From Anaerolineales bacterium (GTDB taxonomy: Bacteria > Chloroflexota > Anaerolineae > Anaerolineales > UBA11858): a stretch of DNA of 64,000 bases. Below are positions 19,938 to 42,457 of this stretch, one piece after another. The stretch is taken from positions 86,694-150,693 of the forward strand of contig JAXHNK010000007.1 in NCBI GenBank assembly GCA_034520505.1, read 5' to 3'. Numbering within the stretch: position 1 is the stretch's first letter; every line of letters begins with the position of its first letter. The position numbers and the translations under genes were made by a program. Under the pieces are notes generated by a model. The model saw only the letters and a program-made list of their open reading frames with translations. It was not told the origin of the DNA and did no database searches.

Positions 19938-20006
19938 TATTTCCTGATCATGAACTTCAAGGGGTCCATAATGGATAAACGATTGAATGGCAAATAACCG
20001 TTTAAT

Positions 20007-22739
20007 TTACTGATGTTGGATTTTTTTTAAAAACACCCTGACTACCCGGGGATCGAACTCTTTCCCCGAATTTTCTTTGATGTATTGGATGGCTTGTTGT
20101 TGGGACCAGGCTTTCCGGTAGGGGCGGTCACTGCGTAAGGCATCCCAGACATCAACCACGGCGAAAATCCGGGCTGCGAGCGGGATGTTTTCTCCAGTGA
20201 GACCGGCTGGATAGCCGCTTCCGTCCCACCGCTCATGATGAGAAAGGGGAATGTCCAGGGCGGGGGTGATATATTGAATTGGTTTGAGCATCTTCTCGGC
20301 GTAAAGGGGATGTTTTCTGATTTCTTCCCATTCATCCTCGGTTAATTTCCCTGGTTTTAACAGAATTTTATCTGGAATAGCAATTTTCCCCACATCATGG
20401 AGAAGGGCCCCCCGGCGGATATGGATCATTTCTTCTGGGGGGATATTCATCTCCCGGGCGATAGCCAGGGTCAGGTTCACCACTCGTTTACTGTGTCCTT
20501 CTGTCTCGTGATCTTTCATCTCTAAAGCCCGGGCCCAACCCTGCAAGGTTGAATCGTAGGCCTGGGACAGTTCCAGGTTTGTGCTCTGTAAATCTTCAAA
20601 CATTTCCGCATTATCAATAGCAATAGCTGCTTGCCCGCCTAAAGTGTCGGCGTAGTTCTTCCATTCCTGGGGGACTTGCTTTGGGGACCGGTTGAAAAGC
20701 TCCAGGACACCCCGGATTTTTCCCTTAAAATTTAAAGGTAAAGCATAATAAAAAACGAAATTTTCGTCCTGGAGGTAGCGGCTCTGGATAAATTTACCTG
20801 GTTTTTCCGTTAAATTTGATATATGCACCGGTTTGTTTTCCAGGACAGCCTGACCGGCGTACCCTTTGCCAACCAGAAGATGGGTAGATGTTAAGGCGCT
20901 GGTCTTAAAACCCCTGGATTTTTTATAGGACAGGGTTTTCGAGTCCTGATCGAGGAGCAAGATACAGGCGGCATCGACTTCTAGCTGGCTGAGGACGTGC
21001 TCCAGGATGATGTTGAGGGTGATATTGATGTCCAGACTGCTGCTGATCGTCCGGTCAATACTGCGCAGGGTTTGCAGGCGGTTGACTTGTCGCTCAACTG
21101 TCCTGTACAACCTTGCCCGCTGGATGGAGATTGCTAATTGACTGGCCAGGGTGACCAGGAAGCGTTCGTCTGCAGCTGAGTAAGCATCGGGTCTTTTGTC
21201 CTCGGTGTTAATCACCCCTAACACATTATCCTGCACTTTGATAGGCACACATAATTCTGATTTGATCCCGGGGACTATTTCCAGGAACTGCGTGCTTTCC
21301 TCGACGTCGGGAAGGTAGATTGATCCTCCGGTTTTGACCACCTGCCCGACAATACCCTTGTTGAGGGGTACTTTGACATCTACCAATTCCTGGGGGATAT
21401 TCCGGTAGGAGGGGTGTACGGTTAACACCTTTTCCTGGGGGTCAAGCAGCAGCACCCCGTAAAATTCTGGGTTGAGGACCTTTCCCATGATCTCTGTTGC
21501 TTGATCTATGATCACATTTTCATCCGTTTCCACGGTGGCCGTTGTGGCTAAATTGTGCAATGAGGATGTTTCCTGCAGCTGGCGTTCGAGGATTTGTTCC
21601 CGTTTTTTTCTTTCACTGATATCCCGCAGTCCGACCAGGATGACTTCTTCCCCGCCTCCCATCAGGTGCGGGCGGGTGGTAAACTCCACCGGGAATTGTT
21701 CCCCGCTGGCCCGGAGGTGAATGGATTCGGTGGTGAATTCTTCTGCGGCTGTATAGGGGTTATCGGGAGAGGGAACCTGATCATGTTTTTCTTCCGGGAC
21801 CAGATCGCGGACGGTTTTGGTGAGAAATTCTTCCCGGGAGTAACCGTATATATCACAGGCCTGCTGATTGACATCAACAATTTCGCCGATCATGTTCTGG
21901 ACCAGCAGCGCATCCTGAACACCGTTAAAAATTCCCCGGTAACGCTGTTCACTGGTTTCCAGCTTCTGGACTGCTTTTTCCCGTTCGGTGATATCGATAA
22001 AGGAGGCTGCCATCTGCCCCTGGCGGCCTATCGGGCTTACAGTCAGATAACCATAACGCGTTTCTTGGTCCTGGGTAAGGTAGCGGAATTTAATTTGATC
22101 AGGTGGGGCTTGCTCTTCTTTTCCGCTGAGCTGTAGATATTCCTTAATCTGCTCGTGGTCATCCGGGTGGACAAAATCTGTCCATTTCAATTTTCCTTCG
22201 GATGCATCTTTTGAATAGCCGGTTTGTTTGCCGAATTCGCTGTTAGTTAGAGAGATGGTGTGATCAGGTTCAATGATGATTGTGGCTGTTCCCGTATTTT
22301 CAAAAATGGTCCGGTATCGTTTTTCGCTCTCTTTGAGAGCCTCCTCTGCTTTCCGGGCCTGGCGTTTTACCTGATGTTCCTCAAGGGCTTTTGTCACTGC
22401 TGGACCCAGCCGGGTCAATCGGTCTTTAATCAAATAGTCAGCAGCGCCCAATTTGATCAGCTGGACAGCCGTGTTTTCACCTACGCTGCCCGTGATCACC
22501 AGAAAAGGGATAGAAAATTTTTTCTCCGAGAGGATCTCTAAAGCCCGGGGAGCGTCAAATTGGGGCATAGAATAGTCAGAGAGGATGATGTCATAATCTG
22601 GACGCAGGATTTCCAGGTAATCGTTTTCGGTTTCTACCCGGTCCCAATCTGGTTGATAACCTTCCTTGCGGAGTTCGTGGAGCATCAGCTCTGCATCGGA
22701 GGGATTATCTTCTAAAATTAATACCTTTAAAGATTTCAT
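20007..22739 (-). CDS. response regulator REC-PAS-PAS-GAF-GAF-HD-GYP (c-di-GMP phosphodiesterase type)
   Basis: 910 aa: REC 'VLILEDNPSD...ILSDYSMPQFD', PAS blocks and GAF blocks. HD 'ALLHDVGK' and 'HHERWDGSGYP' near the C-terminus. Confidence 0.88.
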   Translation of the reverse strand: MKSLKVLILEDNPSDAELMLHELRKEGYQPDWDRVETENDYLEILRPDYDIILSDYSMPQFDAPRALEILSEKKFSIPFLVITGSVGENTAVQLIKLGAADYLIKDRLTRLGPAVTKALEEHQVKRQARKAEEALKESEKRYRTIFENTGTATIIIEPDHTISLTNSEFGKQTGYSKDASEGKLKWTDFVHPDDHEQIKEYLQLSGKEEQAPPDQIKFRYLTQDQETRYGYLTVSPIGRQGQMAASFIDITEREKAVQKLETSEQRYRGIFNGVQDALLVQNMIGEIVDVNQQACDIYGYSREEFLTKTVRDLVPEEKHDQVPSPDNPYTAAEEFTTESIHLRASGEQFPVEFTTRPHLMGGGEEVILVGLRDISERKKREQILERQLQETSSLHNLATTATVETDENVIIDQATEIMGKVLNPEFYGVLLLDPQEKVLTVHPSYRNIPQELVDVKVPLNKGIVGQVVKTGGSIYLPDVEESTQFLEIVPGIKSELCVPIKVQDNVLGVINTEDKRPDAYSAADERFLVTLASQLAISIQRARLYRTVERQVNRLQTLRSIDRTISSSLDINITLNIILEHVLSQLEVDAACILLLDQDSKTLSYKKSRGFKTSALTSTHLLVGKGYAGQAVLENKPVHISNLTEKPGKFIQSRYLQDENFVFYYALPLNFKGKIRGVLELFNRSPKQVPQEWKNYADTLGGQAAIAIDNAEMFEDLQSTNLELSQAYDSTLQGWARALEMKDHETEGHSKRVVNLTLAIAREMNIPPEEMIHIRRGALLHDVGKIAIPDKILLKPGKLTEDEWEEIRKHPLYAEKMLKPIQYITPALDIPLSHHERWDGSGYPAGLTGENIPLAARIFAVVDVWDALRSDRPYRKAWSQQQAIQYIKENSGKEFDPRVVRVFLKKIQHQ

Positions 22740-22812
22740 ATGGATGTTGTCCTAGCCTAAACCGGGGAAACTTAAGAAAATTCGGGGTGGTTTTGAGGCT
22801 TTTTGATCTTGT

Positions 22813-23256
22813 TCAGGCAGCCTGTTGATTTACCTTCAGCCAGTAAGACCCAACCTGTTGAACGGTTTTTGAAAATTGATTAAAATCAACCGGTTTGGTG
22901 ATAAAACTGTTAGCTCCCAGGGCGTAACTTTGGCGGATATCTTGTTCCTGGTCTGAGGAAGAAAAGACCACCACAGGAATATTCCTGGTTTGGGGATGGG
23001 CCTTGATCTTTTCCAGGACTTCCAGCCCGTTGACCTTGGGCAATTTAAGGTCAAGCAAAATCAACCGGGGTGGGTTAGGCTCCTGCAATCCCTGATAATT
23101 TCCCTTTCCAAAGAGGAAATCAAGGGCTTCTGCCCCATCTCGGATCACTTTGATGTTCTCGGCTAGCTCTTTTTGGCTCAAGGCATGTAAAGTCAACTCT
23201 TCATCTGAGGGATTATCCTCTACGAGGAGGATATCAGGTGGTAAATTGTTTTCCAT
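22813..23256 (-). CDS. single-domain CheY-like response regulator
   Basis: 147 aa: 'ILLVEDNPSDEELT', phospho-Asp context 'LILLDLKLPKVNG', 'VVVFSSS' and 'ANSFITKP'. Confidence 0.9.
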   Translation of the reverse strand: MENNLPPDILLVEDNPSDEELTLHALSQKELAENIKVIRDGAEALDFLFGKGNYQGLQEPNPPRLILLDLKLPKVNGLEVLEKIKAHPQTRNIPVVVFSSSDQEQDIRQSYALGANSFITKPVDFNQFSKTVQQVGSYWLKVNQQAA

Positions 23257-23366
23257 CGTTTGTTTGCGGATGAACGGGTATTGGTTCTAACTAAAGTATC
23301 TGTGATTTTCTGTTTGATTGCTGTTGCGACATAAGAATTATACTTGATAATGGTCAAATCAGGTGT

Positions 23367-25652
23367 TTACCCGGGTTCCGGCGATGGACCCAGGGTGAAA
23401 TAGAACGCTGCTCCTTGATTTACTTTTCCGTCTGCCCATATCTTTCCCCCGTGGCGGTGGATCAAACGCTGCACAATCGCCAGTCCCACCCCGGTGCCCT
23501 CGTAATCCTGAGATTTATGCAGCCTTTGAAAAATTCCAAAGAGCTTGTCGGTATATGCCATATCAAAACCCACACCGTTATCCTTCACGAAGTACACGCG
23601 CTCATCACCCTCCAGGAAGGAACTGATTTCAATCTTTGTCTGGGGCTGATTTTTGGTGTATTTCAGGGCGTTGTCTATCAAGTTAACATAGATTTGCTTC
23701 AAGAACCCGGCGTCTGCCTGGCAGGGGGGTAATGTGTCTAGAATGATCTCCATTTTTCTGTCCGGATAATCTCTTCTCAGGGAGTCAATCACACCTTCAA
23801 CCAGATCCCGGGTGTTTATCTGCTCGATATTTAAGGCTTGCTGCCCCAGACGGGAGAGAGAGAGCAAATCTTTGATAAGGATGTCCATCTGATTAGCATT
23901 TTCCTGGATCAGGTCCAGATAGCGGAACGCTTCGTCAGGTATCTGGGGTTTAAACTCACTCATCAGGATCCGGGAAAAACCATTAATCGCCCGCAGCGGT
24001 GCCCGGAGGTCATGGGAAACAGAATAGGTGAAGGATTCCAGTTCTTGATTGGCCAGCTGCAGCCGGGTGGTGGTATCTTCTAATTTGCGGTTAGTTACCT
24101 GAAGATCTTCCAACAGGTTGGTTAAAGCCTTGTTCAGCGTTTCTACTTCTGTTATCCGGATTTCTAATTCTCCGGTCCGTTGATCGACCAGGTCTTCCAA
24201 TTCTTCTTGATAAGATTTCAGCTCCTGTTCAGCCCGGAGTCTTTCAGTGATGTCATTTCCCGAGGAAAGGATGCCCGTGATCTGTCCTTTTTCGTCTTTC
24301 AGCAGTACGTTGTTCCAATCGATGATTTTTTCAGTGCCGTCTTTGGTGATCACTTGATTTTGATGATTCTCAACTACAGGTGACCGCCCTTCGATCATCT
24401 CCTTGAATACCTCTCGAACTTTTTGCTGGTTTGCGGGCGGAATACAGATTTCAAACCAATCTTTTCCGAGCAGATCCTCCTCACGATGTCCGAGCAGCTG
24501 ACTGCCAAAGTCGTTAATCAAAATAATCGTTCCTTTTTGGTTAAGGGCAACGATCATCACTTTGGCGATGTCCAAAAAATTCTGAGCCCGATTCCGTTCC
24601 TTGAGCAGGGCTTCTGCAATCCCTTTCCTTTCTGTGATGTCGGTGGTAAATCCCTGAATGGTAAATGATCCATCAGGAGATCTGTGATTGATCCGGGCAT
24701 TCATGGATAGCCAGATCAGCTCGCCGTTTTTCTTCTCTGCCTGGTAGGCAAAATCTTTCACCTGTTGGTTCTTTTTTAGTTCCTGGAGAAAGGTCTTTCT
24801 CCGTTCCGGATTATGATAGAGTTCAGTCCCCAGGTCATTATAGGCATTGAGTGCCTCCTCTTTGGTCTGGTAACCCAGGATTTCAGCCATTTGCGTGTTG
24901 ACTTCCAGGACTTTGCCGTCAGATGTGGTTCGAAAAATTCCTACAGGAGCCTGTTCGACAAGTTTGCGGTAGCTTTCTTCGCTGTCCAGGAGAGCGGATT
25001 CTCTCTCTAAATTTTCGCTGATATCTTTGATGATCCCGATGAATCCGGTAAGTTCTCCCTGATTATTCCTCAGATAGGAGACAGTGGTTTCCCCGGGAAA
25101 GGTTTCCCCATTTTTCTTCCGGTAAACTGTGATCGTAGAAATATCGGGATCGGTAACTTGGGGGGTTAATTTTTCTCCCAGGGATTGATACTGCTCCGGT
25201 TGATGGTAGATAACATGGGTCTTTTGGCCCTGAAGTTCTTCCAGGGAGTAGCCGAACAATTCGCTGAAAGCAGGGTTCCAGTCAATGATTTCCCGCTGGG
25301 TATTGGCCACCAGGATAGGATCCCTGATGCTTTTAAATAAGGACAGATATTTCTCTTTTGAATTCCGGAGCTGGTGTTCTTTCCGGATGAGTTTCCTGGT
25401 GTGAAAGTTAATACTCAGCCAGAGCAGCAGACCGGTGGTCCCGACATAGAAAAATCCTTTGATCGTTTGTAGTCTGGTTAAAGCCTGAGGATCGGTCACC
25501 GCCAGGATCAGGATCCTGTCCGAAAGCCGGATCCATAATCCGCCAAGGATCAGATAACCGGCGGTGATCAGGAGGGGAGTCCAGGAGATGGCGTTTCGAT
25601 TCTTTATTTTCTTCCTCAGCTGGTTCCAGGTTGATTGGCTTTTGGTGCCCAT
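23367..25652 (-). CDS. multi-PAS sensor histidine kinase
   Basis: 761 aa: two N-terminal TM helices and several PAS/PAC blocks. H-box 'SVSHDLRAPL'; HATPase N/G boxes 'DNALKYT', 'DNGVGF' and 'GTGVGLAIV'. Confidence 0.9.
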   Translation of the reverse strand: MGTKSQSTWNQLRKKIKNRNAISWTPLLITAGYLILGGLWIRLSDRILILAVTDPQALTRLQTIKGFFYVGTTGLLLWLSINFHTRKLIRKEHQLRNSKEKYLSLFKSIRDPILVANTQREIIDWNPAFSELFGYSLEELQGQKTHVIYHQPEQYQSLGEKLTPQVTDPDISTITVYRKKNGETFPGETTVSYLRNNQGELTGFIGIIKDISENLERESALLDSEESYRKLVEQAPVGIFRTTSDGKVLEVNTQMAEILGYQTKEEALNAYNDLGTELYHNPERRKTFLQELKKNQQVKDFAYQAEKKNGELIWLSMNARINHRSPDGSFTIQGFTTDITERKGIAEALLKERNRAQNFLDIAKVMIVALNQKGTIILINDFGSQLLGHREEDLLGKDWFEICIPPANQQKVREVFKEMIEGRSPVVENHQNQVITKDGTEKIIDWNNVLLKDEKGQITGILSSGNDITERLRAEQELKSYQEELEDLVDQRTGELEIRITEVETLNKALTNLLEDLQVTNRKLEDTTTRLQLANQELESFTYSVSHDLRAPLRAINGFSRILMSEFKPQIPDEAFRYLDLIQENANQMDILIKDLLSLSRLGQQALNIEQINTRDLVEGVIDSLRRDYPDRKMEIILDTLPPCQADAGFLKQIYVNLIDNALKYTKNQPQTKIEISSFLEGDERVYFVKDNGVGFDMAYTDKLFGIFQRLHKSQDYEGTGVGLAIVQRLIHRHGGKIWADGKVNQGAAFYFTLGPSPEPG

Positions 25653-25658
25653 AGAAAT

Positions 25659-28013
25659 TTAATTATCCTTAATTTCTGAGAAGTTTATAGGATCATCCCC
25701 CAGAGGATCATCGACAGCTGGATCAAGTCCCGCTTCCTGCAGCTGGTTTTGGAGGACTTTGATAATTTTCTTTAGTTCTGCCATCCTCACTTCTCTCCCG
25801 GCCATGAGGTTAACTATTTTTTGCAGCTCAGAGGTGCGTTCCTGGACGCGCTGTTCTAACTCCTCAGCATATTGCTGGATTTGTTCGTAAAGCCGGGCGT
25901 TCTCGATAGCCTGGGCTGCCTGGGCTGCAAAGGGTTTGGCCAACTCAGCGTCCGAATATCCGTAAGCGTGAGCCTGGTAGCTGTCAAAAGTAATGTGGCC
26001 GATTAAATTCCCTTTGATTAACAAGGGCACACCCATCCATCCCCGGACATCACCGGTGTTTTCCCAACCCTGGAACCGGGGGTCTTTACTGGCGTCGTCA
26101 ATGATGATCGTTTGTTTGGTTTCTTTGATCTCCTGAAAAAGAGGACTGTCGAGGGGGTAAGTTTTTCCTATGATATCTTCGTCAATTCCCCGGGAGGTGA
26201 CAATTCTTAAGTGTTCTCCTTCTACCAGAAAAATTGTGGCGCTGGAGTAGGGTATGGTCTCGATAATGTTTTCCATAATCAGGTCCAGAACCTCGTTCAA
26301 CGATAGTGTTGAGGTGAGCGCGGTGGAAACTTTCTGCATGCTTTTTAGTTTCCTGATGTGTTCCTTGATCTCAAGTTCTGCCTGGATGCGGTCTGAGATG
26401 TCCTGGTGGGTGCCTGCCATCCGCAGGGGTTTTCCATCCTCCGCCCATTCGACAACCCGGCCCTGGGCCAAACCCCAGACCCAGTGTCCTTGTTTATGTT
26501 TCATGCGCATTTCCAGGGAATATTGTTCTAGGTCCCGGGCAAAATGCCGGGAGATTAATTCATAAAACTTTTCTAAGTCATCAGGATGGATTAATTCCTC
26601 CCAGGATTCAATGGAAAGTGGGGAGATTTCTTCTTTGGTGTGACCAATGATATCCGCCCAGCGGTCGTCGATGACTATTTCGCCGTTGGGGATGTCCCAA
26701 TCCCACAGCCCGACATTCGTACCTTTGATAGCCAGGTCCAGGCGCTCTCGATAGGTTTCCAGGGCGCTTTGGTCTTTAAGTTCTTCCGTGATATCCCGGA
26801 TGGTTCCTTGGAGAGCGATCACACTTCCGGATTCATCTCTCACTGCTGCCGAGGTGAATAATGTGTTGATCACAGAGCCGTCTTTCTTTCTCAAAGCCAC
26901 AGGATACTCTTTGAGGAAATCCTTTTCTTCAATTTTCTGGATGTGGTTCCAGCGGTCATCAGGATCTGCATAGAATTCGATCACCGGGGTGTTGAGGAAT
27001 TCTTCCCTGTCTTGATAGTCAAACAACTGCAGGGTGGCGTCATTGACATCAATCCATTCGCCGTCCTTCGAGGTGATAAATACGCTGTCCTTGGAGGTTT
27101 TGAAAAACCTTTGATATTTGTCTGCGCTTTCCTGGAGCGACCGGGTCTTTTTCCTGATGATGTATCTCATACTTCCCGCTGCTGCCAGGAGGATGAGAAC
27201 TGTGCCTCCGCTGGCGATCAAACTCCATTTCAACCAGCTCGGGATCACAGAGGTTGAGGATGGGTTAATCATCCGGTCAAAGGATTGATAATAGAACGAA
27301 TCAGGGTCTGATTTCAGGCTAATCAGGTGTTGATCAATGGTTGGCAGCAGCGCATTTTGAGCATCCCGGGAAGCGATAAACACAATCTCCAGGGGATTGA
27401 ACATAATTCCGGTCGATCTGACCTGATACTTGGCAGCGTTTTCTTGAGCAAAAAGCTGATCGACAACGCCTGCGGCTGCCCGTCCGGACGCGATCGCCTG
27501 CAGGACCTCAGAATAATCGTTCACCAGGATCTGGTTGCCCTGGATATTGTGAGTCTGGAGCATTTCCCAGAAGGCTTTGGTGTGATCTCCGCCGCGGACC
27601 AGGGCGATAGGTTCGCCCTGAAGATCACTGACCTGTTTGATTCTTGAGCCTTTGGAGGTAAAAACCTGCCCTGAAATTTGGATTAAGGCTTCCTGGCTGG
27701 TAGCAAAACGGGCAGGGTCGATATCCTGTTCCCGGACCGCGCTGACCAGATCCAGATCTCCTTTTTCTAAGGAGCTCAGGCATTCCTCGTACGTACACTG
27801 CTGATAGGTTAGGTTCCAGCCTTCCTTTTCCGCGATGTGATCCAGGATATCAACGGCAAACCCTTGAGGTGTTCCCTCAGCGTAAATTTGTTGCAGCGGA
27901 GGATAGAAATAAACCCCAACCCGGACGGGAGGCGCTGTCTGGGCGCTTACCCCTCCGGGCAGGGCGATCAGAAGCAGGAGAATGATGATCAAAGGCGCTT
28001 GGAAGTATTTCAT
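25659..28013 (-). CDS. sensor protein without transmitter: signal peptide, periplasmic solute-binding (SBP_bac_3-like) domain, TM, 2x PAS, GAF, C-terminal coiled coil
   Basis: I chose the ATG at 28013 (MKYFQAPLIIILLLLIALPGGVSAQ signal). SBP-like 'VRVGVYFYPP...GFAVDIL', TM 'LIASGGTVLILLAAAG', PAS and GAF blocks. It ends in 'NLMAGREVRMAELKK...' with no H-box or ATPase. The stop is 6 nt before the kinase gene. Confidence 0.8.
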   Translation of the reverse strand: MKYFQAPLIIILLLLIALPGGVSAQTAPPVRVGVYFYPPLQQIYAEGTPQGFAVDILDHIAEKEGWNLTYQQCTYEECLSSLEKGDLDLVSAVREQDIDPARFATSQEALIQISGQVFTSKGSRIKQVSDLQGEPIALVRGGDHTKAFWEMLQTHNIQGNQILVNDYSEVLQAIASGRAAAGVVDQLFAQENAAKYQVRSTGIMFNPLEIVFIASRDAQNALLPTIDQHLISLKSDPDSFYYQSFDRMINPSSTSVIPSWLKWSLIASGGTVLILLAAAGSMRYIIRKKTRSLQESADKYQRFFKTSKDSVFITSKDGEWIDVNDATLQLFDYQDREEFLNTPVIEFYADPDDRWNHIQKIEEKDFLKEYPVALRKKDGSVINTLFTSAAVRDESGSVIALQGTIRDITEELKDQSALETYRERLDLAIKGTNVGLWDWDIPNGEIVIDDRWADIIGHTKEEISPLSIESWEELIHPDDLEKFYELISRHFARDLEQYSLEMRMKHKQGHWVWGLAQGRVVEWAEDGKPLRMAGTHQDISDRIQAELEIKEHIRKLKSMQKVSTALTSTLSLNEVLDLIMENIIETIPYSSATIFLVEGEHLRIVTSRGIDEDIIGKTYPLDSPLFQEIKETKQTIIIDDASKDPRFQGWENTGDVRGWMGVPLLIKGNLIGHITFDSYQAHAYGYSDAELAKPFAAQAAQAIENARLYEQIQQYAEELEQRVQERTSELQKIVNLMAGREVRMAELKKIIKVLQNQLQEAGLDPAVDDPLGDDPINFSEIKDN

Positions 28014-28237
28014 AATGTAGATATTCTGGTCACGTGGACGGGAAAATGATAGAAAAACACTTGGGCTGCAGGAAACCAAGGGTGAGGTAAACAAATTTTA
28101 TCATATCCTGGGGTTTCCATCGGGATGGAGAGCAGTTAGGGAGTTTACAAAAAATTTAAGACTCCGGCTTGCCAGCCTCTTTATTGGGGGAAAACTACCT
28201 GACAGCGGAGGGCGGCCGGAAAAACAGCCGGGGATTG

Positions 28238-35102: not shown

Positions 35103-38100
35103 ATGACTGAAAATAATTCTGAATCTAAGCCAAAGCCTCATGAACGCTTCAAAGAACTGCTGGAAAAGGCCAAGAGTGAAGAAGACCGGGCTGAAATCCT
35201 GGCGGAAATGTACTTAAAAGGAGATTATCCACCTTTTTTAAAGCCTGATGATGATCAGAGTGTGATCAGGGAAGAAGGTTCCAAACTGTCGGAAGGCGCT
35301 GAAGAGAGCAGAAGTCTCCGGGAAGAACCAACAACAAGTACCGGGGAAGAGCAATCAGCTCAGGATGAGGGTGTAGGTGAAGTAACTCCTCCTTACCAGG
35401 AAACGGTGTTACTGGGCGATGAATCTGCTGATGCAGAGACTGCGCTTGAGATTGATCCCGGAGCAAAAGACACAGAGCAGTTCCCGGCTGAACAACAAGA
35501 GAAGGAAAACCCGCTAAAAGATCCTTTTGCGGATACTCCACCTCCCGCTCTGGGAGAAACACCCCGGACACCTCCCCCTGCGATGGATTCCAGGGGTATG
35601 CCCTTGCCCCGGCGGGTCGAGGGGAGCGCTGCTCGGGAAACTGTTTCTCCTCAAGTAACGAAAAATCGGTCAGCCCTTCCCGCTTCCCGGCGGTATTCTC
35701 AACCGCACCGTTCCTCCTCCCAACCCCGTAAGGCTGGTTGGTTTGCAAGGGTCAAGAGCTGGTGGAAGAATTCCGGACCCCCCAGCTGGGATTGGAGCGG
35801 CAGGTTTGGTTGTTTGTTGAAGATGGGGGTGATTGGTTTATTTATCGGGGTGATCCTGGCCATAATTACCGCTTCTCTGGGGATTTACCACTATCAGAAG
35901 ATCGCCAGAACCCTGCCTGATGTGGAAGACCTCAGAGAGCAGGCTGCCCAATTTGAGACCACGCGGATCCTGGACAGGGAAGGGAATGAGTTGTATGAAA
36001 TTCTGGATCCCAATGCCGGCCGCAGAACCTACGTTCCCCTGGAGGAGATTTCTCCTTATCTGGTGGCAGCGACGATTGCTACTGAAGACGCAAATTTTTA
36101 CAGCCACCCCGGGTACGATGTCTTCGCTATAGCCAGGGCTTTTTATCAGAACCTGGTCAGTGATGAAATCGTTTCCGGAGCTTCGACGATCACCCAGCAG
36201 TTGACCCGGATGCTGTTATTATCACCGGAGGAACGTGCCCGCAGAACCTATGCCAGAAAGATCAGAGAGGCGATCCTGTCCGCAGAGATCACCCGACGCT
36301 ACAGCAAGGATGAAATTCTAGAACTCTACCTCAATGAGATCAATTTCGGGAACCTGGCTTACGGGGTAGAGGCGGCAGCGGAAACCTATTTTAAGACTTC
36401 TGCCAAAAACCTCACGCTGGGCCAGGCTTCGTTCCTGGCTGGTATTCCCCAGCTGCCGGCGGTTTATGACATTTACAACAACCGGGACGTCACCTTGAGC
36501 AGACATGAAAGCGTGCTGGTCCTGATGTACCAGGTCAGCAAAGAGCAGGGGTGTATTTATGTCAGCAATAATCAGCAGCGAATCTGCATCGGTCCCGGAG
36601 AGGCTACAGCAGCAGCCGAGGAAATTCGCCAGTATGAATTTACTGCACCTTACGGCGATATTCGCTTTCCGCACTGGGTAACATATATCCGGTCTTTGCT
36701 TGAAGAACGCTACGACCCGCAGACCATTTACCGGTCCGGGTTTACTGTTTACACAACGCTCGATCCCGGATTGCAGCAGGCCGGCCAGGATATAGTTCGT
36801 CAGCAGGTAGATGCCCTGAAGGGGAAAAGGGTGTCCAATGGAGCACTGATTGCGGTTCGACCTTCAACCGGTGAGATCCTGGCGATGGTAGGGTCCGCTG
36901 ATTTTAACAACGAGGATATCCAGGGTGAGATTAATATGTCCGTGAGCCCCCGGCAGCCGGGGTCGGCTATTAAACCATTAACTTATCTGGCAGCTTTTGA
37001 AAAAGGTTGGACGCCGGCGACGTTGATCTGGGATGTCCCTTCCGAGTTTCCCCCTTCTGGAGACCCCAATGATCCCCGTCCTCCCTATAAACCTGTAAAT
37101 TATGATGAACGATTTCACGGACCGGTCCGCCTGCGCTCGGCCCTGGCCAATTCGTATAATGTGCCAGCGGTGAAAACCCTCGATTTTGTGGGCATTTACG
37201 ATAATCCGGATACTCAAACCGAGGAAGGATTGATTCCTATGGCAGAGCGCTTGGGGATCACCACCCTGACCAGAGATGATTACGGTCTGAGTTTGACCCT
37301 GGGTGGAGGGGATGTGACCTTGCTCGAACTTACCGGTGCTTTTGCGACCATGGCTAACGGGGGCAGGCGCGTCCCACCGGCAGCTATCACCAGAATCGAG
37401 GATTTTCAGGGCAATGTGGTTTTCGATTATCAAACCCCCTCCGGCGAGCAGGTGCTCAGGCCGGAACATGCCTTCTTGATTTCCTCTATCCTGTCGGACA
37501 ACCGGGCGCGAACGCCGGCATTTGGTCCCAATTCTCTGCTCAACTTACCGTTCCAGGCGGCGGCGAAAACCGGCACAACCAACGATTTCCGGGATAACTG
37601 GACTGTGGGCTATACACCGGACCTGGCCGTTGGGGTCTGGGTGGGCAACGCTGATTACACCCCGATGATTGACACCAGCGGGTTAACCGGGGCGGCTCCG
37701 ATCTGGAATCAATTTATGAAAACGGGGATCCAGCAGCTGACCGGCGGCAATCCCTCTTCCTTTGTCAGACCGGCGGGGGTGATTGAACGGGTGATCTGTT
37801 CGGTATCGGGGACGGTGCCTTCTCAGTGGTGTCCCGATCAACAAAGTGAATATTTCGCTGCCGATCAACCCCCGCAGCCCGAGGAAGAAGACCTCTGGCA
37901 GGAAGCCACCCTTGACACCTGGACCAATATGCTGGCTTCGCCGGAATGTTCGGAATTTACCAAAACTGAAATGGCGATCAAGTTGGATGACCCCTGGGCG
38001 ATCAAGTGGCTGCGGGAAACCAATCAGGGACAGATGTGGGCGAAAAATCACGGTTGGAAAAAATGGCCCTATATTATCCGGGAGGATGAGATCTGTGAAA

Positions 38101-38621
38101 AGGATGATCCCCGGCCGATCCTGGAAATTGCTTCACCCCGCCAGGATGATGTGATTGATTCATCACCATTAAAAATCTTTGCCCGGCTGGATGCCACGGG
38201 TAAGTATAAAAGAGCGAGTCTGGAATTCGGACAGGGCTCTGATCCTGGCGATTGGGAAGTGCTGGAAAGGTTTGATTCCCCGATCACGGAGACGTCTGAG
38301 GTTTATTCCTGGGATGTCAGTGAGCTTTCTGCCGGGGTGTATTCTTTGAAGTTCCGGCTGGAAAGTACGCTTGGCGGCTATGCAGAAAAGATCATCCAGA
38401 TAGATCTCCAGGTGCCTACGCCCACCCCGACCCCCACTTCCACGCCTACTTTAACCCTGACTCCGACGCCGACGGAAACCCCGACGCCGACACCGACAAA
38501 CACCTCAACCTCAACCGCTGTTCCCCCGACGGCAACTTTGACCCCCAGTCTGACCCCGACACCCAGCCCGACACCCAGCCCGACACCCAGTCTGACCCCG
38601 GAACCCAGCCCGACACCTTAG
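35103..38621 (+). CDS. class A penicillin-binding protein (GT51 glycosyltransferase + transpeptidase) with long N- and C-terminal extensions
   Basis: 1172 aa. About 230-aa acidic/Pro-rich N-terminus, then TM '[21 protein letters not shown]'. GT51 '[12 protein letters not shown]' and 'GASTITQQL'. TPase 'GSAIKP' (SxxK), 'SYN' and 'KTGTTN'. Extra C-terminal domain plus a Pro/Thr tail. Confidence 0.9.
38415..38618 (+). repeat. in-frame Pro/Thr/Ser low-complexity repeat (68 codons) at the PBP C-terminus
   Basis: Translates to [28 protein letters not shown]...[24 protein letters not shown]. The DNA shows reiterated 'cccgacacccag' units. Confidence 0.9.
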
Positions 38622-38693: not shown

Positions 38694-40934
38694 TCAGATC
38701 AGGGGAAGTTGGGGGGCGTCATAGGTCAGGGGATCAAGGTTGAATCTTTCCGGGAAGTTTTCCGGCGTGAGGCTTCCTTCCTCTGCCAGGCGGCGCAGGT
38801 GGCGGAATTTCAGGAAGCTCCAGGAATCTGCGATCAGGTCAGCCAGCGGGGGATTATGTTTAAGTTTGTGAGCGACCAGTTTTGCCCTGCTCCCGGGAAG
38901 GACGATCCAGGGGTGGGGAGGCTGCTCGGTGTGTCTGGTGATGATTTTGTTCAATAGGGCGGATGCGGAGATAAAAAAAGTGGCTTGGGTTTCACCCCCC
39001 GCAGTCCAAGTGTAGACCAGCACCTGTCCTATGGGGGGTAATTGTTTGGTCTGAAAGTTTAATTCTTCTCCTATTTTTTGCAGGTGCCCGGCGATCTCTT
39101 TCAGGTCGTGAACCCGGTTTTCAGGTTGATCGCCTGTTTTCAACGTCCATTTTGTTTCCCCGATGTCCAGGGGTTCTGCATAGGATTCCAAACATACCGA
39201 AATCAGATCCGCTGGCGGGGTGAGCAGCCCGGGGAAGGCAGCAAAAAGCTGGTCCTCCAGCTGCTTCCGGAGGGAGGATTGATCTTGACCAACCAGCAGT
39301 TGAACGAGCTCGATTTCAACCTGGTCGGAAAGGGGGCTGACCCCCGGATTTAGCTCCTGGTGCCACCAGGTATCCGGTTCTGAATAATAAAGGAATCCCT
39401 GCCTGTAGGCATAGGTTTCGTCCAGCTCTTGACTTATCTGCTGATAAATCTTATCAACTGGTGTTTTTGACCCGGGGGGAATTAAGCCGCTGTCAGCTAA
39501 CGCTGAAAGCCCGGCGGCGTATAAAGTCAGGGTGTGGCAGGGTTCTCCGGCATCCTTCAACAGCTGATATCCTGCATCTAACAGTTTTGTTTTCCGGGTT
39601 ATAGCCCTGGGCGGCTGGTCTTCGTGTGGAGCTTGCCGCCAGCTGAGCTGAGCTTGGGCTGGTCGGGAATTGAGGGCCAGACCCTGAAGGGAAATTCCCG
39701 CAGATTGGGCTGCAGTTAGAGTGGCTGATAAAAAGGAAGGGTTTAAGCCGGACAGGGTGCCAAACCAGGTGGTGTCGACATCCACGAGGCCGCTCAGGCT
39801 GGAAAGGTTGCCCTCCACAGCTCTCGCGTACCAGGTCCAATCCATATCGCTCAGGGTGAGGATATTCCGGAGGGCAGCGGCTGATTCTTGACCCCAGAGC
39901 CAACCGGACCAGAGAGCGGAGAGCGACCAGAACACGGGATTCGGATGGGGAGGGGCCACGACAATCAGAGAAATAGGCTGGCTTATTGATTCCTTGATCA
40001 GATCTCGGGAGCGGCCGGGAAAGAGGGTGATGCCGCCGTCCCGGGGAGGGAGGTCCGGCCAGTTCTGCACAGAGACAGGGGTATGCTCCCCGGGCCAGGA
40101 ATTGACACCTTCTTCAAACACATACCAGACGTTATTTTCCCGGTATTGTCCCGGGGGCTTAAGTTCGGTGAGAAGTGGGGTTTTGGAATCAGCGGGCAGG
40201 AGGGCATGACAGTGGGCGAAGGCATTCAGCAGCAAGGCAGCCAGGTGCCTTTTCATGGTCTCTTCAACCCCCAGGGCTGTGTATTTATTGATCAGGGTGA
40301 ACAGGGCATAAACCGCCCGGGGGGGATAAATGCTCAACGTTTTTTCCACGTGAGGATGGATGGGGTCTTCTGGGGAAGCAACCCGGGTCAGGGCCCGGGC
40401 ATGATAGAGAGAATTATCCCGGTAGCTCAGGGCTCGTTCAACATCATCCTCAGTGGTTTGATATTCTCCCTGATCCCCACAGTCCGGACAGCGGCAAATT
40501 TTGCGGATGGGGAGGGATTTTTTCCGGCTCCAGATAAAAGCTCGGGCAGAGATCGGGCTGCCGCACTGGGGACATTCTGTTTCGTATAGGGATAAGACAT
40601 GAGGCTCAAGGCGTTCTTTGCCTTTGAAGGAGCCGGCCAGGGCAGCCACCGCGGCGTTCAATTGATCTTTTTGGGGAGGGGTGGCTAAGGTCTTGACCAG
40701 GAATCTGGTGATGGGATTGTTAACAGCGGCCAGGTACCGGTGGCCGCTCCGGGCAGCTTCCAGGGCCAGCAGGGGGTTGCTGCCGAAAGAATCCAGCAGC
40801 AAACCCGGGGGAGGCGGCTGCCGCTCCAGCCAGACTTTAAGAACGCCTTCCCGGTATCCAGGGTAATAATCTTCGAGTGGATAGCGGATTGAAGGTCGGT
40901 TCCCGCGAATATAAGCGAAGTTGTTTTTCGGCAT
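38694..40934 (-). CDS. hypothetical Zn-ribbon protein resembling a degenerate N6/N4 DNA-methyltransferase
   Basis: I chose the ATG at 40934, 5 nt after GAGGAGGGGG (746 aa). Motif-I-like 'LLDSFGSNPLLALEAARSG..AAVNNP', Cys4 ribbon 'CPQCG...CRCPDCG', and motif-IV position 'VVAPPHPNPVFWSLSALWSGWLW'. Confidence 0.6.
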   Translation of the reverse strand: MPKNNFAYIRGNRPSIRYPLEDYYPGYREGVLKVWLERQPPPPGLLLDSFGSNPLLALEAARSGHRYLAAVNNPITRFLVKTLATPPQKDQLNAAVAALAGSFKGKERLEPHVLSLYETECPQCGSPISARAFIWSRKKSLPIRKICRCPDCGDQGEYQTTEDDVERALSYRDNSLYHARALTRVASPEDPIHPHVEKTLSIYPPRAVYALFTLINKYTALGVEETMKRHLAALLLNAFAHCHALLPADSKTPLLTELKPPGQYRENNVWYVFEEGVNSWPGEHTPVSVQNWPDLPPRDGGITLFPGRSRDLIKESISQPISLIVVAPPHPNPVFWSLSALWSGWLWGQESAAALRNILTLSDMDWTWYARAVEGNLSSLSGLVDVDTTWFGTLSGLNPSFLSATLTAAQSAGISLQGLALNSRPAQAQLSWRQAPHEDQPPRAITRKTKLLDAGYQLLKDAGEPCHTLTLYAAGLSALADSGLIPPGSKTPVDKIYQQISQELDETYAYRQGFLYYSEPDTWWHQELNPGVSPLSDQVEIELVQLLVGQDQSSLRKQLEDQLFAAFPGLLTPPADLISVCLESYAEPLDIGETKWTLKTGDQPENRVHDLKEIAGHLQKIGEELNFQTKQLPPIGQVLVYTWTAGGETQATFFISASALLNKIITRHTEQPPHPWIVLPGSRAKLVAHKLKHNPPLADLIADSWSFLKFRHLRRLAEEGSLTPENFPERFNLDPLTYDAPQLPLI

Positions 40935-41011
40935 CCCCCTCCTCACTTATCTAATAGGTTCTGGATGATCAGTTTAATAAACGACGGGTGAATTTGTTTT
41001 TCCCGTTCTGG

Positions 41012-42457
41012 TCAACTTTCGATGGTATGGAGCAGGGCGAAATTGGGTGGGACCATTTCTGCAATGGGGAAACCGGCGATAAGGACAATTTCCTGCCCGG
41101 CGTCTATCGGTGTATCCTGAATCACAGCCACGTTAACCAGTTCTAACATATCTTCCACTGTTTCAGCATGCGGAATCAGATAAGGCATTGTGCCCCAGAG
41201 CATGGATAAATAGTGGTAGGTTTTTTCCCGGGGGGTAAAAGCCAGGATGGGCACTGTGGGACGGGCTTTGGACATCAGTCTTGCTGTCCTGCCGCTGGTA
41301 GTGAAAACAGCGATGGCAGCAACTGAGCGATCATGGGCTAATTCTCTGGCGGCACGGGTAATAGAAACCGCATTATCCTGGATGTAGTCATCGGTGAGAG
41401 CAAAGTTTGATTGGCCCCATTCTTCCATATGCTTTTCGCTTTGGCGGATTATAGAAGCCATCATTTGGACTGTCTTGACAGGATATTTCCCGACCGCGGT
41501 TTCCCCGGAGAGCATCACGGCATCACTGCCGTCCAGGACTGCGTTGGCGACATCAGAAGCTTCTGCTCTCGTCGGACGGGGGGAGCTAATCATCGACTCC
41601 AGCATCTGGGTGGCGATGATCACAAAACTGAGGTGTTTGTTGGCCATGGAAATAATCCGCTTCTGGGCGATGGGGACCAGTTCTGGCTCCATTTCTATTC
41701 CTAAATCCCCCCGGGCGACCATCACTCCATCAGCGGTGTGGATGATTTCATGTAAGTTATCAATGGCATCCGGATGTTCTAATTTGGCGATGATGGGCAG
41801 GCTCTTGAGTTCCGGGTCAAGCTTGATGATTTCCTCGCGGAGACCTGCTATATCCGCGGCGGATCGGACGAAAGATAAAGCAATGATATCAACCCCGTGT
41901 TCGAGCCCAAAGTCCAGGTCCTGGAGATCCTTTTCCGTCAAACTGGGCAGGGAGAGGTTCGCGCCCGGCAAATTAATCCCTTTGTTGGGTTTCAGGGTTC
42001 CCCCCACGACCACCTCGGTGATTACGTTTTGCCCCTGAATTTCTTTGACGGATAATTCCAACTTACCATCATCAAGGAGGATTTTTCCCCCGATTTTAAC
42101 GCTGTCCGCTAAACCAGAAAAATTAACCGGGATGATGTCCTGGGTACCTGCAAAGTCCTCCGGAGATAGGATCAATTCCTGACCGTCCTGAAGTTCCACA
42201 GACCCTTCCTGGAGGGGTCCGGTGCGAATTTTCGGACCGCACAGGTCCTGCATAATAGTGATCGGACGGGAGAGCTGTTTGGCCTCTTCCCGCAAGGTCT
42301 GAATAACCTGGGCGTGGGTGGGGTGGTCCCCGTGGGAAAAGTTGATCCGGGCGATATCCATCCCCTGGGTTAAGAGCTCCCTGATAGTTTCTTGATCATT
42401 GCTGGCCGGGCCGATGGTGGCCACGATCTTGGCTTTTCTGTATTTCTGGTCTAGCAT
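41012..42457 (-). CDS. pyk: pyruvate kinase
   Basis: 481 aa: 'KIVATIGPAS', 'ARINFSHG', 'GPKIRTG', 'MVARGDLGIE' and 'ATQMLESM'. Confidence 0.95.
   Translation of the reverse strand: MLDQKYRKAKIVATIGPASNDQETIRELLTQGMDIARINFSHGDHPTHAQVIQTLREEAKQLSRPITIMQDLCGPKIRTGPLQEGSVELQDGQELILSPEDFAGTQDIIPVNFSGLADSVKIGGKILLDDGKLELSVKEIQGQNVITEVVVGGTLKPNKGINLPGANLSLPSLTEKDLQDLDFGLEHGVDIIALSFVRSAADIAGLREEIIKLDPELKSLPIIAKLEHPDAIDNLHEIIHTADGVMVARGDLGIEMEPELVPIAQKRIISMANKHLSFVIIATQMLESMISSPRPTRAEASDVANAVLDGSDAVMLSGETAVGKYPVKTVQMMASIIRQSEKHMEEWGQSNFALTDDYIQDNAVSITRAARELAHDRSVAAIAVFTTSGRTARLMSKARPTVPILAFTPREKTYHYLSMLWGTMPYLIPHAETVEDMLELVNVAVIQDTPIDAGQEIVLIAGFPIAEMVPPNFALLHTIES

Follow-up and report, generated by a model that had tools for sequence, protein, structure and literature searches.

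A methylase-related Anaerolineae protein family with replaced catalytic motifs and a putative sliding-clamp-binding tail

A gene on contig JAXHNK010000007.1 of an Anaerolineales bacterium (assembly GCA_034520505.1) raises the question of what a methylase-like protein can do for its host once the catalytic motifs of its relatives have been replaced. The gene lies in a stretch of 64,000 nucleotides (positions 86,694 to 150,693 of the contig), the whole of which was analysed and is denoted the window; all coordinates below are those of the window. Its product, the target, is a 746-residue zinc-ribbon protein that an initial annotation, made from the sequence alone, had described as an orphan, exapted and non-catalytic methylase fold. 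Exaptation remains the best reading, the loss of catalysis and the status of S-adenosylmethionine (SAM) binding being deduced from the motifs. The strongest functional clue is a feature that the annotation overlooked, the conserved C-terminal tail of the protein. The picture that results from combining all the evidence, for which we consider the chances to be evenly balanced, is that of a defence methylase domesticated into a DNA binder that no longer methylates and is tethered to the replisome.

38694..40934, minus strand: coding sequence of 746 amino acids plus stop, identical to hypothetical protein U5K99_09885 of the NCBI metagenome-assembled genome (MAG) Anaerolineales bacterium

The family to which the target belongs is almost certainly a diverged but true homolog of the DUF1156-type N6-adenine DNA methylases. 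The homology to Zn-ribbon methylases of DUF1156/COG1743, proposed from the start, is supported concordantly by profile-profile, HMMER and fold searches. In hhalign, the family profile matched a profile of 32 genuine enzymes containing DUF1156 and PF01555 (97.5%, E value 5.8e-12), the match spanning motifs I and II together with the linker helix and the Zn ribbon; the single target sequence, compared with the methylases in the same way, reached an E value of 1.6e-10. A HMMER profile of residues 27-160 detected all 120 DUF1156 enzymes surveyed (103 at E<=1e-6) and none of 707 control proteins. The PADLOC MTase_II models were matched by 20 of 46 family members scanned singly (best E value 4e-7), over residues ~10-160 only, and the target alone gave a weak match (E value 0.006). 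The DUF1156 consensus that the annotation had quoted is accurate, the enzymes reading VLDPFMGGGTTIVEALRxGCNVIGxDLNPVAWF.

Comparison of the target sequence with Pfam, NCBIfam and PDB sequences yielded Zn-ribbon noise only and no methylase match. An hmmsearch of PDB with the family profile returned zinc fingers and TFIIS only, and Pfam scans of individual members produced nothing significant (GpA_ATPase and RecO_C appeared as sub-threshold Zn-ribbon artefacts). Neither of the two Pfam models named in the initial annotation, PF06634 (the DUF1156 N-terminal domain) and PF01555, was matched by the target, although the homology is real by profile comparison. PF06634 was likewise absent from 46 family members and is matched by the haloarchaeal comparator enzyme WP_114587329; PF01555 reached an E value of 0.09 in one of the 46 members. 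Residues 1-45 of the target showed no significant similarity to residues 1-100 of the comparator.

With greedy extension, hhalign aligned the family and DUF1156 profiles collinearly through the whole catalytic domain, with these correspondences:

Motif I: LDPFGaSP in the family, LDPFMGGGT in the DUF1156 enzymes
Motif II: aaNNPI in the family, GxDLNPVA in the DUF1156 enzymes
Zn ribbon: CxxC...CxxC in the family and in the DUF1156 enzymes
Helix motif: PRAVYALFTLINK in the family, FNxRQLLxLGKLL in the DUF1156 enzymes
ENN motif: RENNVW in the family, VENNxWG in the DUF1156 enzymes
Strand b4 and motif IV: AVxxA(L/F)PRPNqaFW in the family, collinear with the motif IV region of the DUF1156 enzymes

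In the alignment, the family ribbon pairs with the first and the third CxxC of the DUF1156 methylases. When regions were compared separately with the methylases, residues 175-300 gave a weak hhalign match (E value 9e-4), and residues 300-445 and the C-terminus gave no significant match in hhalign or HMMER; comparisons restricted to residues 161-300, 300-440 and 441-746 were likewise weak or null. Because these later regions are weak or null on their own, the correspondence of motif IV rests on collinearity and strand position. All the motif strings quoted in the initial annotation are present in the target: the N-terminal block LLDSFGSNPLLALEAARSGHRYLAAVNNPITRFLVKTL (residues 46-83), CPQCG (residues 121-125), CRCPDCG (residues 147-153) and a second block, VVAPPHPNPVFWSLSALWSGWLW (residues 325-347), which starts 172 residues past the ribbon, close to the 170 estimated. 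The resemblance of the two blocks to the methylases fared unequally: that of the N-terminal block lies far beyond chance (at the E value of 5.8e-12 given above), whereas the second block is collinear with its counterpart but not significant alone. The family is a derived homolog and is not to be filed as a member of the DUF1156 methylases, because it is without four features that define those enzymes: the DUF1156 domain, the SAM loop together with the acid of motif II, the DPPY tetrad and the DUF499 neighbourhood.

The AlphaFold2 model built from the family alignment (predicted local distance difference test, pLDDT, 91.7; predicted template modelling score 0.89) contains strands at residues 45-48, 66-70, 263-267, 321-326, 389-394, 414-422 and 427-434, in the order typical of class I methyltransferases, with a 190-residue insert carrying the Zn ribbon between b2 and b3 and a terminal b6/b7 hairpin (residues 414-434). 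As modelled, the methylase fold extends to about residue 435. In a Foldseek search of PDB with the whole model, the top matches were all SAM methyltransferases (among them EcoP15I Mod, Dam and RsmF), none of them at E<=1e-3 (E values of 3e-3 or higher). Among predicted viral structures, the top match was a Pandoravirus DNA N4/N6 methylase (E value 7e-6, probability 1.00), and the next in rank were DNA methylases as well. The methylase part of the target maps as follows, TRD standing for target-recognition domain:

40710..40802, minus strand: methylase-fold strands b1-b2, residues 45-75 (motifs I and II)
40458..40583, minus strand: Cys4 zinc ribbon, residues 118-159 (C121, C124, C149 and C152), in the insert after strand 2
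40149..40454, minus strand: helical part of the TRD-like insert, residues 161-262, with the helix motif given above
39630..40148, minus strand: methylase-fold strands b3-b7, residues 263-435, with the motif III-like YRENNVW
39891..39962, minus strand: motif IV-equivalent and Trp-rich helix, residues 325-348, VVAPPHPNPVFWSLSALWSGWLWG

The replacement of the glycine loop and of the (D/N)PPY tetrad, first noticed in the target, proved to be family-wide in an alignment of 257 full-length members. The pattern [DNS]PP[YFWH] near b4 was found in none of them, the equivalent of the tetrad being (A/V)(L/I/F)PR (APPH in the target) within a consensus that reads A(L/F)PRPNQAFWTLSALWxGWLWG through the Trp-rich helix. 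No member has GxG in motif I, where the family reads DPFG[AS]SP, the target DSFGSNP and the active enzymes DPFMGGGT. An acid at the motif II position occurs in a single member, the family reading AANNP and the target AVNNP in place of the GxDLNP of the active enzymes. The four Zn-ribbon cysteines are retained in 256 of the 257 sequences. The replaced motifs argue strongly against N6-adenine methylation, which the family very probably no longer performs; an active orphan methylase of the Dam/CcrM type was rejected, its motifs being absent family-wide. These changes do not look like erosion: residues 45-75 form the most conserved segment of the protein (mean column identity 0.72), followed by the Trp-rich helices after motif IV (0.68), and the motif III-like E266-N-N268-x-W270 is invariant both in the family and in the active enzymes. 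Because the segments of the former active site are the most conserved in the protein, the site appears to have been remodelled and fixed and not to be decaying, and the remodelled pocket may still bind a flipped base or a ligand.

The target itself is an outlier within the family, with S49 where 45 of 46 members have P49, N53 where the others have Ser, and H330 where 40 of 46 have R330 (APPH against A[LF]PR at residues 328-330). These outlier residues (49, 53 and 328-330, at nucleotides ~39945-40790) might reflect relaxed constraint in this lineage or sequence errors in the MAG.

The same conservation feeds the main rival of the replisome-tethered binder, namely that the protein is still an enzyme, a clamp-tethered non-canonical methyltransferase or another SAM-dependent transferase that carries out maintenance modification of nascent DNA, much like DNMT1 on its PCNA tether. 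We regard this as rather unlikely. It would account for the former active-site segments being the best conserved, for the invariant ENNxW of both families, for the retained D of DPF and for a loop, G-[AS]-S-P, that still consists of small residues; moreover, active haloarchaeal relatives possess clamp-type tails (see below), so that tethering would have evolved in a catalytic context. Against it, (D/N/S)PP(aromatic) is absent from all 257 sequences, with Ala or Val at the equivalent of the catalytic D/N and Arg in place of the stacking aromatic, the motif II acid is missing from 256 of the 257, and there is no Pfam or NCBIfam methylase match.

The case for tethering comes from the C-terminus, where the following features were identified:

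38697..38738, minus strand: conserved C-terminal tail, predicted to be disordered, residues 733-746, LDPLTYDAPQLPLI
38697..38711, minus strand: putative beta-clamp-binding pentapeptide QLPLI, formed by the last five residues (742-746)

Residues D734, P735 and Q742 of the tail are invariant, and pLDDT drops below 50 for residues 740-746. The pattern Q[LMIV]x[LMIVF][LMIVFYW] occurs within the last nine residues of 239 of the 257 family members and at the exact C-terminus of 213; most of the 18 exceptions have QxxΦF a few residues short of the terminus. The Gln is invariant in the motif, position 2 is Leu, Met or Ile, position 4 Leu or Met, and position 5 Leu, Phe or Ile. By comparison, the pattern was found in one of 707 neighbouring proteins and in none of 120 active DUF1156 methylases, and the target is its sole bearer among the 62 long reading frames of the window. 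Variants include QMRLL, QMSLL, QLSLF, QLALF and QLRLF, of which QMSLL is the clamp motif of Escherichia coli MutS. The bacterial clamp motif is QL[S/D]LF (in its looser form, QxxLF or QLxLF), in which positions 1, 4 and 5 are critical, and is often located at unstructured C-termini (PMC12309361, PMC4549789); QLSLF is itself a characterised clamp motif (PMC12309361). In its pattern, its disordered terminal position, its conservation among orthologs and its rarity elsewhere, the tail has every sequence-level mark of a clamp motif, and it probably is a beta-clamp-binding motif. Calibration of the motif within the same genome found no replication or repair gene in the window, and no account of a clamp-binding methylase-like bacterial protein was found in the searchable literature.

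Similar tails occur among active relatives. The ~56 haloarchaeal active DUF1156 methylases used for comparison (P0268-P0323) all end in D(T/E)QLD(L/I)xDF(S/x), and other DUF1156 methylases end in SQLNL, TQLNI, KQERLL or KQEKLL. The haloarchaeal tail QLDLxDFS matches the PCNA-interaction (PIP) box of Haloferax volcanii, QxxLxxFx (PMC7776575). Thus, two clades of the lineage bear a host-appropriate clamp motif at the same position, which supports the functionality of the tail, although the haloarchaeal tails amount to roughly one observation because the sequences are closely related. Clamp tethering may therefore predate the loss of catalysis, and the tails suggest that BREX-related defence methylases are clamp-tethered and may work at the replication fork; the BREX/BR-system preprint that describes the 'BR-MTases' does not mention PCNA or clamps.

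Alternatively, the terminal Qxx(L/M)(L/F/I) might be a signal of another kind, such as a docking peptide or a degron, in a DNA-binding regulator or nucleoid protein that acts outside the replisome. This is unlikely. The motif is indeed short and degenerate, with Ile or Leu at position 5 in ~56% of cases, and no replication gene is found in synteny. Nevertheless, the Gln is invariant and positions 2, 4 and 5 are limited to residues allowed in clamp motifs; the motif forms the exact end of a disordered tail far more often than the background would predict (213/257 against 1/707); variants are identical to characterised motifs (QLSLF and QMSLL); and in archaeal relatives the corresponding place is taken by the archaeal clamp motif.

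What the initial annotation took for a C-terminal region of ~400 residues of unknown function resolves into the remainder of the methylase fold (to ~435), two winged helices, a degenerate nuclease-like domain and the clamp-type tail. The model of the C-terminal 310 residues (pLDDT 93) comprises two winged helices and a restriction-endonuclease-like fold:

39354..39596, minus strand: first winged helix-turn-helix (HTH)-like domain, residues 447-527
39138..39332, minus strand: second winged HTH-like domain, residues 535-599
38775..39137, minus strand: predicted restriction-endonuclease-like a-bbb-a-b domain, residues 600-720

Foldseek matches of this half included FokI, EcoT38I (probability 0.99), Cap4, Can2, McrC, NgoMIV and an RPB5-like domain; FokI was the top match, but a weak one (E value 1.5e-3, template modelling score 0.2). 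The catalytic D...(D/E)xK, with D on b2 and (D/E)xK on b3, is not conserved among the 257 sequences, whereas R607, W643, P680, R683, K690, K709 and R711 are invariant in this domain. On the evidence of the model and the alignment, the nuclease-like domain is likely to be a dead restriction-endonuclease fold.

The description of the gene as an orphan holds in that it is solitary, but the protein has homologs among more than 1,600 cluster representatives at 50% identity. A word-indexed search identified 164 full-length relatives with 35-56% identity and no Pfam domain. In a profile search of 1.84 billion cluster representatives (50% identity), 1,680 matched at E<=1e-3, of which 722 reached E<=1e-30; the best 150 of the 1,680 were all full-length orthologs. 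Relatives are encoded in at least 536 genomes (one genome per GTDB species), essentially all labelled Anaerolineales, Anaerolineae or Chloroflexota. Searches of plasmid and phage collections (tblastn, including the full protein and the C-terminal half) detected no relatives save one distant true methylase. Cluster names and database entries for the family read 'hypothetical protein' throughout, with no Pfam model. Thus, this is a class-wide chromosomal gene, presumably inherited vertically across Anaerolineae and located outside defence contexts. One orthologous locus with typical Anaerolineae synteny (L015, CAXMRF010000042.1) lies in a MAG labelled 'uncultured Nitrosomonadaceae bacterium' and is probably a binning contaminant, and several loci labelled 'Chloroflexia' or 'Chloroflexus sp.' show synteny that looks like that of Anaerolineae.

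The two immediate neighbours reported for the gene, a penicillin-binding protein (PBP) and pyruvate kinase, were both identified with Pfam:

35103..38621, plus strand: class-A PBP (Transgly and Transpeptidase), convergent neighbour
41012..42457, minus strand: pyruvate kinase (pyk), co-directional upstream neighbour

The synteny survey covered 81 loci including the target. A class-A PBP is directly adjacent and convergent in 34 of the 70 loci with a visible downstream gene, and in about 46 of the 81 a PBP is encoded no more than a few genes downstream; this convergent adjacency is the most persistent feature of the synteny. The gene directly follows pyk in 27 of 77 loci, where it closes the string argF, AlaDH/PNT-like, acetyl-CoA hydrolase and pyk. 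Other upstream neighbours are a 446-residue secreted protein without a Pfam domain and an NmrA-like epimerase. Both adjacencies provide context and do not imply a functional linkage. The absence of a helicase, nuclease or ATPase partner, remarked upon for the target, holds in all 81 loci, as does that of DUF499 and PglZ; neither an intact DPPY/NPPY among the 257 orthologs nor a neighbouring defence gene among the 81 loci was found, and membership in a defence island was rejected on the grounds of synteny.

These observations bear on the possibility that a defence system, BREX-related or akin to a Type IIG/IIS-like restriction-modification (R-M) fusion, has left the protein behind as a solitary remnant that either still acts against phages or is decaying. 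Its closest characterised relatives are defence methylases encoded beside DUF499 and PglZ-like genes, and the combination of a methylase, DNA-binding domains and a nuclease fold resembles single-chain R-M enzymes. Such a fate is nonetheless very unlikely for a protein that has kept its full length and its invariant residues across a single class, in at least 536 species genomes, lies in stable housekeeping synteny with no defence partner in any of the 81 loci, is absent from plasmids and phages, and has both catalytic sites replaced by new conserved residues instead of eroded. Least credible is a role as scaffold or regulator in cell-envelope biogenesis, in partnership with the adjacent class-A PBP: the adjacency persists even where upstream genes differ, and the window contains genes for an Amidase_3 and a YkuD L,D-transpeptidase not far away, but the target and PBP genes are convergent and thus not co-transcribed, every recognisable domain is of a nucleic-acid type, and the model shows no evident signal peptide and no evident membrane segment.

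The replisome-tethered, non-methylating DNA binder would have arisen from a DUF1156-type (BREX-related) N6-adenine DNA methyltransferase. DNA binding most likely persists, because the class I fold, the Zn-ribbon target-recognition insert and the two winged helices are kept. By way of its tail, the protein would dock on DNA-loaded DnaN in the wake of replication forks, where the remodelled pocket, the TRD, the winged helices and the basic surface of the nuclease-like domain would engage newly replicated DNA without catalysis, the protein perhaps serving as a reader, protector or organiser of nascent DNA. We infer DNA binding, clamp binding, the replication-coupled role and the loss of catalysis alike.

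Several points weigh against this proposal. The clamp motif is short, and its fifth residue is often Ile or Leu, not the canonical Phe. No replication or repair gene lies nearby, either in the 81 loci or in the window. The loss of catalysis is read from motifs alone, and M.TaqI-type enzymes function with a non-glycine motif I, so that the loss of GxG is weak evidence by itself. No region is more conserved than the pocket, and because E266, the acid of motif III, has also been kept along with the D of DPF, SAM or another ligand may still bind. Finally, outside residues 27-160, the homology to methylases is not significant in sequence.

If the proposal is correct, an anti-phage methylase has been recycled into a housekeeping protein kept by an entire bacterial class, and the bacterial sliding clamp has a new client in the Chloroflexota, a phylum whose replication and chromosome biology is almost unstudied. 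The archaeal PCNA-type tails may bear on how BREX-related defence systems keep self DNA marked. A broader and more tentative scenario, which we consider possible but doubtful, is that the DUF1156-type methylases constitute a prokaryotic clamp-tethered lineage, the haloarchaeal ones by PIP boxes and the bacterial ones by beta-clamp motifs, and that they mark self DNA in a DNMT1-like, replication-coupled manner. One of them would have been domesticated in Anaerolineae as a core, doubly pseudo-enzymatic replisome factor (a dead methylase joined to a dead nuclease) that reads or organises nascent DNA, and this factor would be a previously undescribed part of the bacterial replication machinery. 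In any case, there is now a domain map for a family whose sequence clusters number more than 1,600 and bear the name 'hypothetical protein'.

The start of the coding sequence and the rest of the window can be described briefly. A longer open reading frame (ORF) of 750 residues, 38694..40946 on the minus strand, begins with GTG; the ATG at 40934 is favoured over the GTG at 40946 because it is directly preceded by a Shine-Dalgarno sequence, and the N-terminus of the 746-residue form aligns with those of the orthologs. A promoter and terminator scan returned nothing above shuffled expectation.

40935..40944, minus strand: Shine-Dalgarno sequence GAGGAGGGGG, directly 5' of the ATG

In some orthologous loci, pyk is replaced by a divergent upstream gene for a predicted secreted protein or lipoprotein of ~446 residues (L002:4554-5897, L003:4606-5952, and cluster 13 in nine loci, for example, L026). 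The class-A PBP of the window has a low-complexity, acidic and Pro-rich N-terminal region of ~280 residues before the membrane anchor and a C-terminal tail of Pro/Thr/Ser repeats. The remaining genes of the window are signalling and housekeeping genes, including the following:

17838-28094, minus strand: four large, consecutive signalling proteins (GAF-GGDEF; response regulator-PAS-GAF-HD_5, HD-GYP-like; multi-PAS histidine kinase; SBP_bac_3-PAS-GAF) that look like a cyclic di-GMP signalling cluster
47500-49539, plus strand: 679-residue protein with an adenylate/guanylate cyclase domain fused to an AAA_16 (STAND-like) ATPase domain, an architecture often linked to signalling or conflict systems
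53463-56051, minus strand: 862-residue ORF without a Pfam match at E<=1e-5
56111-61432, minus strand: 1,773-residue protein consisting almost entirely of TPR repeats, adjoining the 862-residue ORF

Among known systems, the closest are the DUF1156/COG1743 'BR-MTases' of the DUF499-centred BREX-related systems, exemplified by the comparator WP_114587329 on Haloplanus rubicundus pCBA1113-01 (L004:5728-8361). The family shares with these enzymes the gamma-type motif order, the Zn-ribbon insert that follows strand 2, the helix motif with its R, ENNxW and the collinear b4/motif IV region. Both would also have HTH-like domains C-terminal to the core (two winged helices predicted in the family), although the C-terminal profiles show no similarity in sequence. 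It lacks their DUF1156 helical domain, GGG loop, motif II Asp and DPPY, and has a single Zn ribbon in an insert ~120 residues shorter, whereas the enzymes have several CxxC pairs. The predicted restriction-endonuclease-like C-terminal domain and the putative terminal bacterial clamp motif set the family apart from these enzymes. The comparator adjoins genes for DUF499 and a PglZ-like phosphatase; the family is never found beside DUF499, helicase or PglZ genes.

A methylase fold combined with a short clamp peptide, which would bring the protein to replication forks, is also seen in DNMT1, an active eukaryotic C5 methylase tethered to PCNA, and in the haloarchaeal methylases with PIP-like tails. 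DNMT1 is unrelated in sequence, and the family differs in lacking catalytic motifs and in having a putative tether of the bacterial QLxL[FLI] type. NucS/EndoMS, a DNA-scanning protein, resembles the family in joining a restriction-endonuclease fold to a C-terminal clamp peptide, although no homology was detected; its catalytic site is intact, it cleaves mismatches as an active endonuclease, and it has no methylase domain. The family may operate in the manner of these clamp-tethered DNA enzymes, though with no evident catalysis. FokI likewise has winged-helix recognition modules followed by a PD-(D/E)xK-type domain, and single-chain R-M enzymes of Types IIS and IIG combine a methylase and a nuclease fold in one polypeptide. 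In Type IIG enzymes, the nuclease is N-terminal, so that the domain order differs from that of the family, whose two catalytic sites are degenerate; an active Type IIS or IIG enzyme was rejected for this reason. The retention of an inactive restriction-endonuclease fold recalls, by description, the iREase domains of BREX/BR helicases, in which a fold with a fully degenerate catalytic motif is kept under selection and non-enzymatic nucleic-acid binding has been proposed (10.1101/2025.10.09.681413). The iREase domains reside in the helicase effectors of defence loci, whereas the corresponding fold of the Anaerolineae family is fused to a pseudo-methylase and encoded in a housekeeping context.

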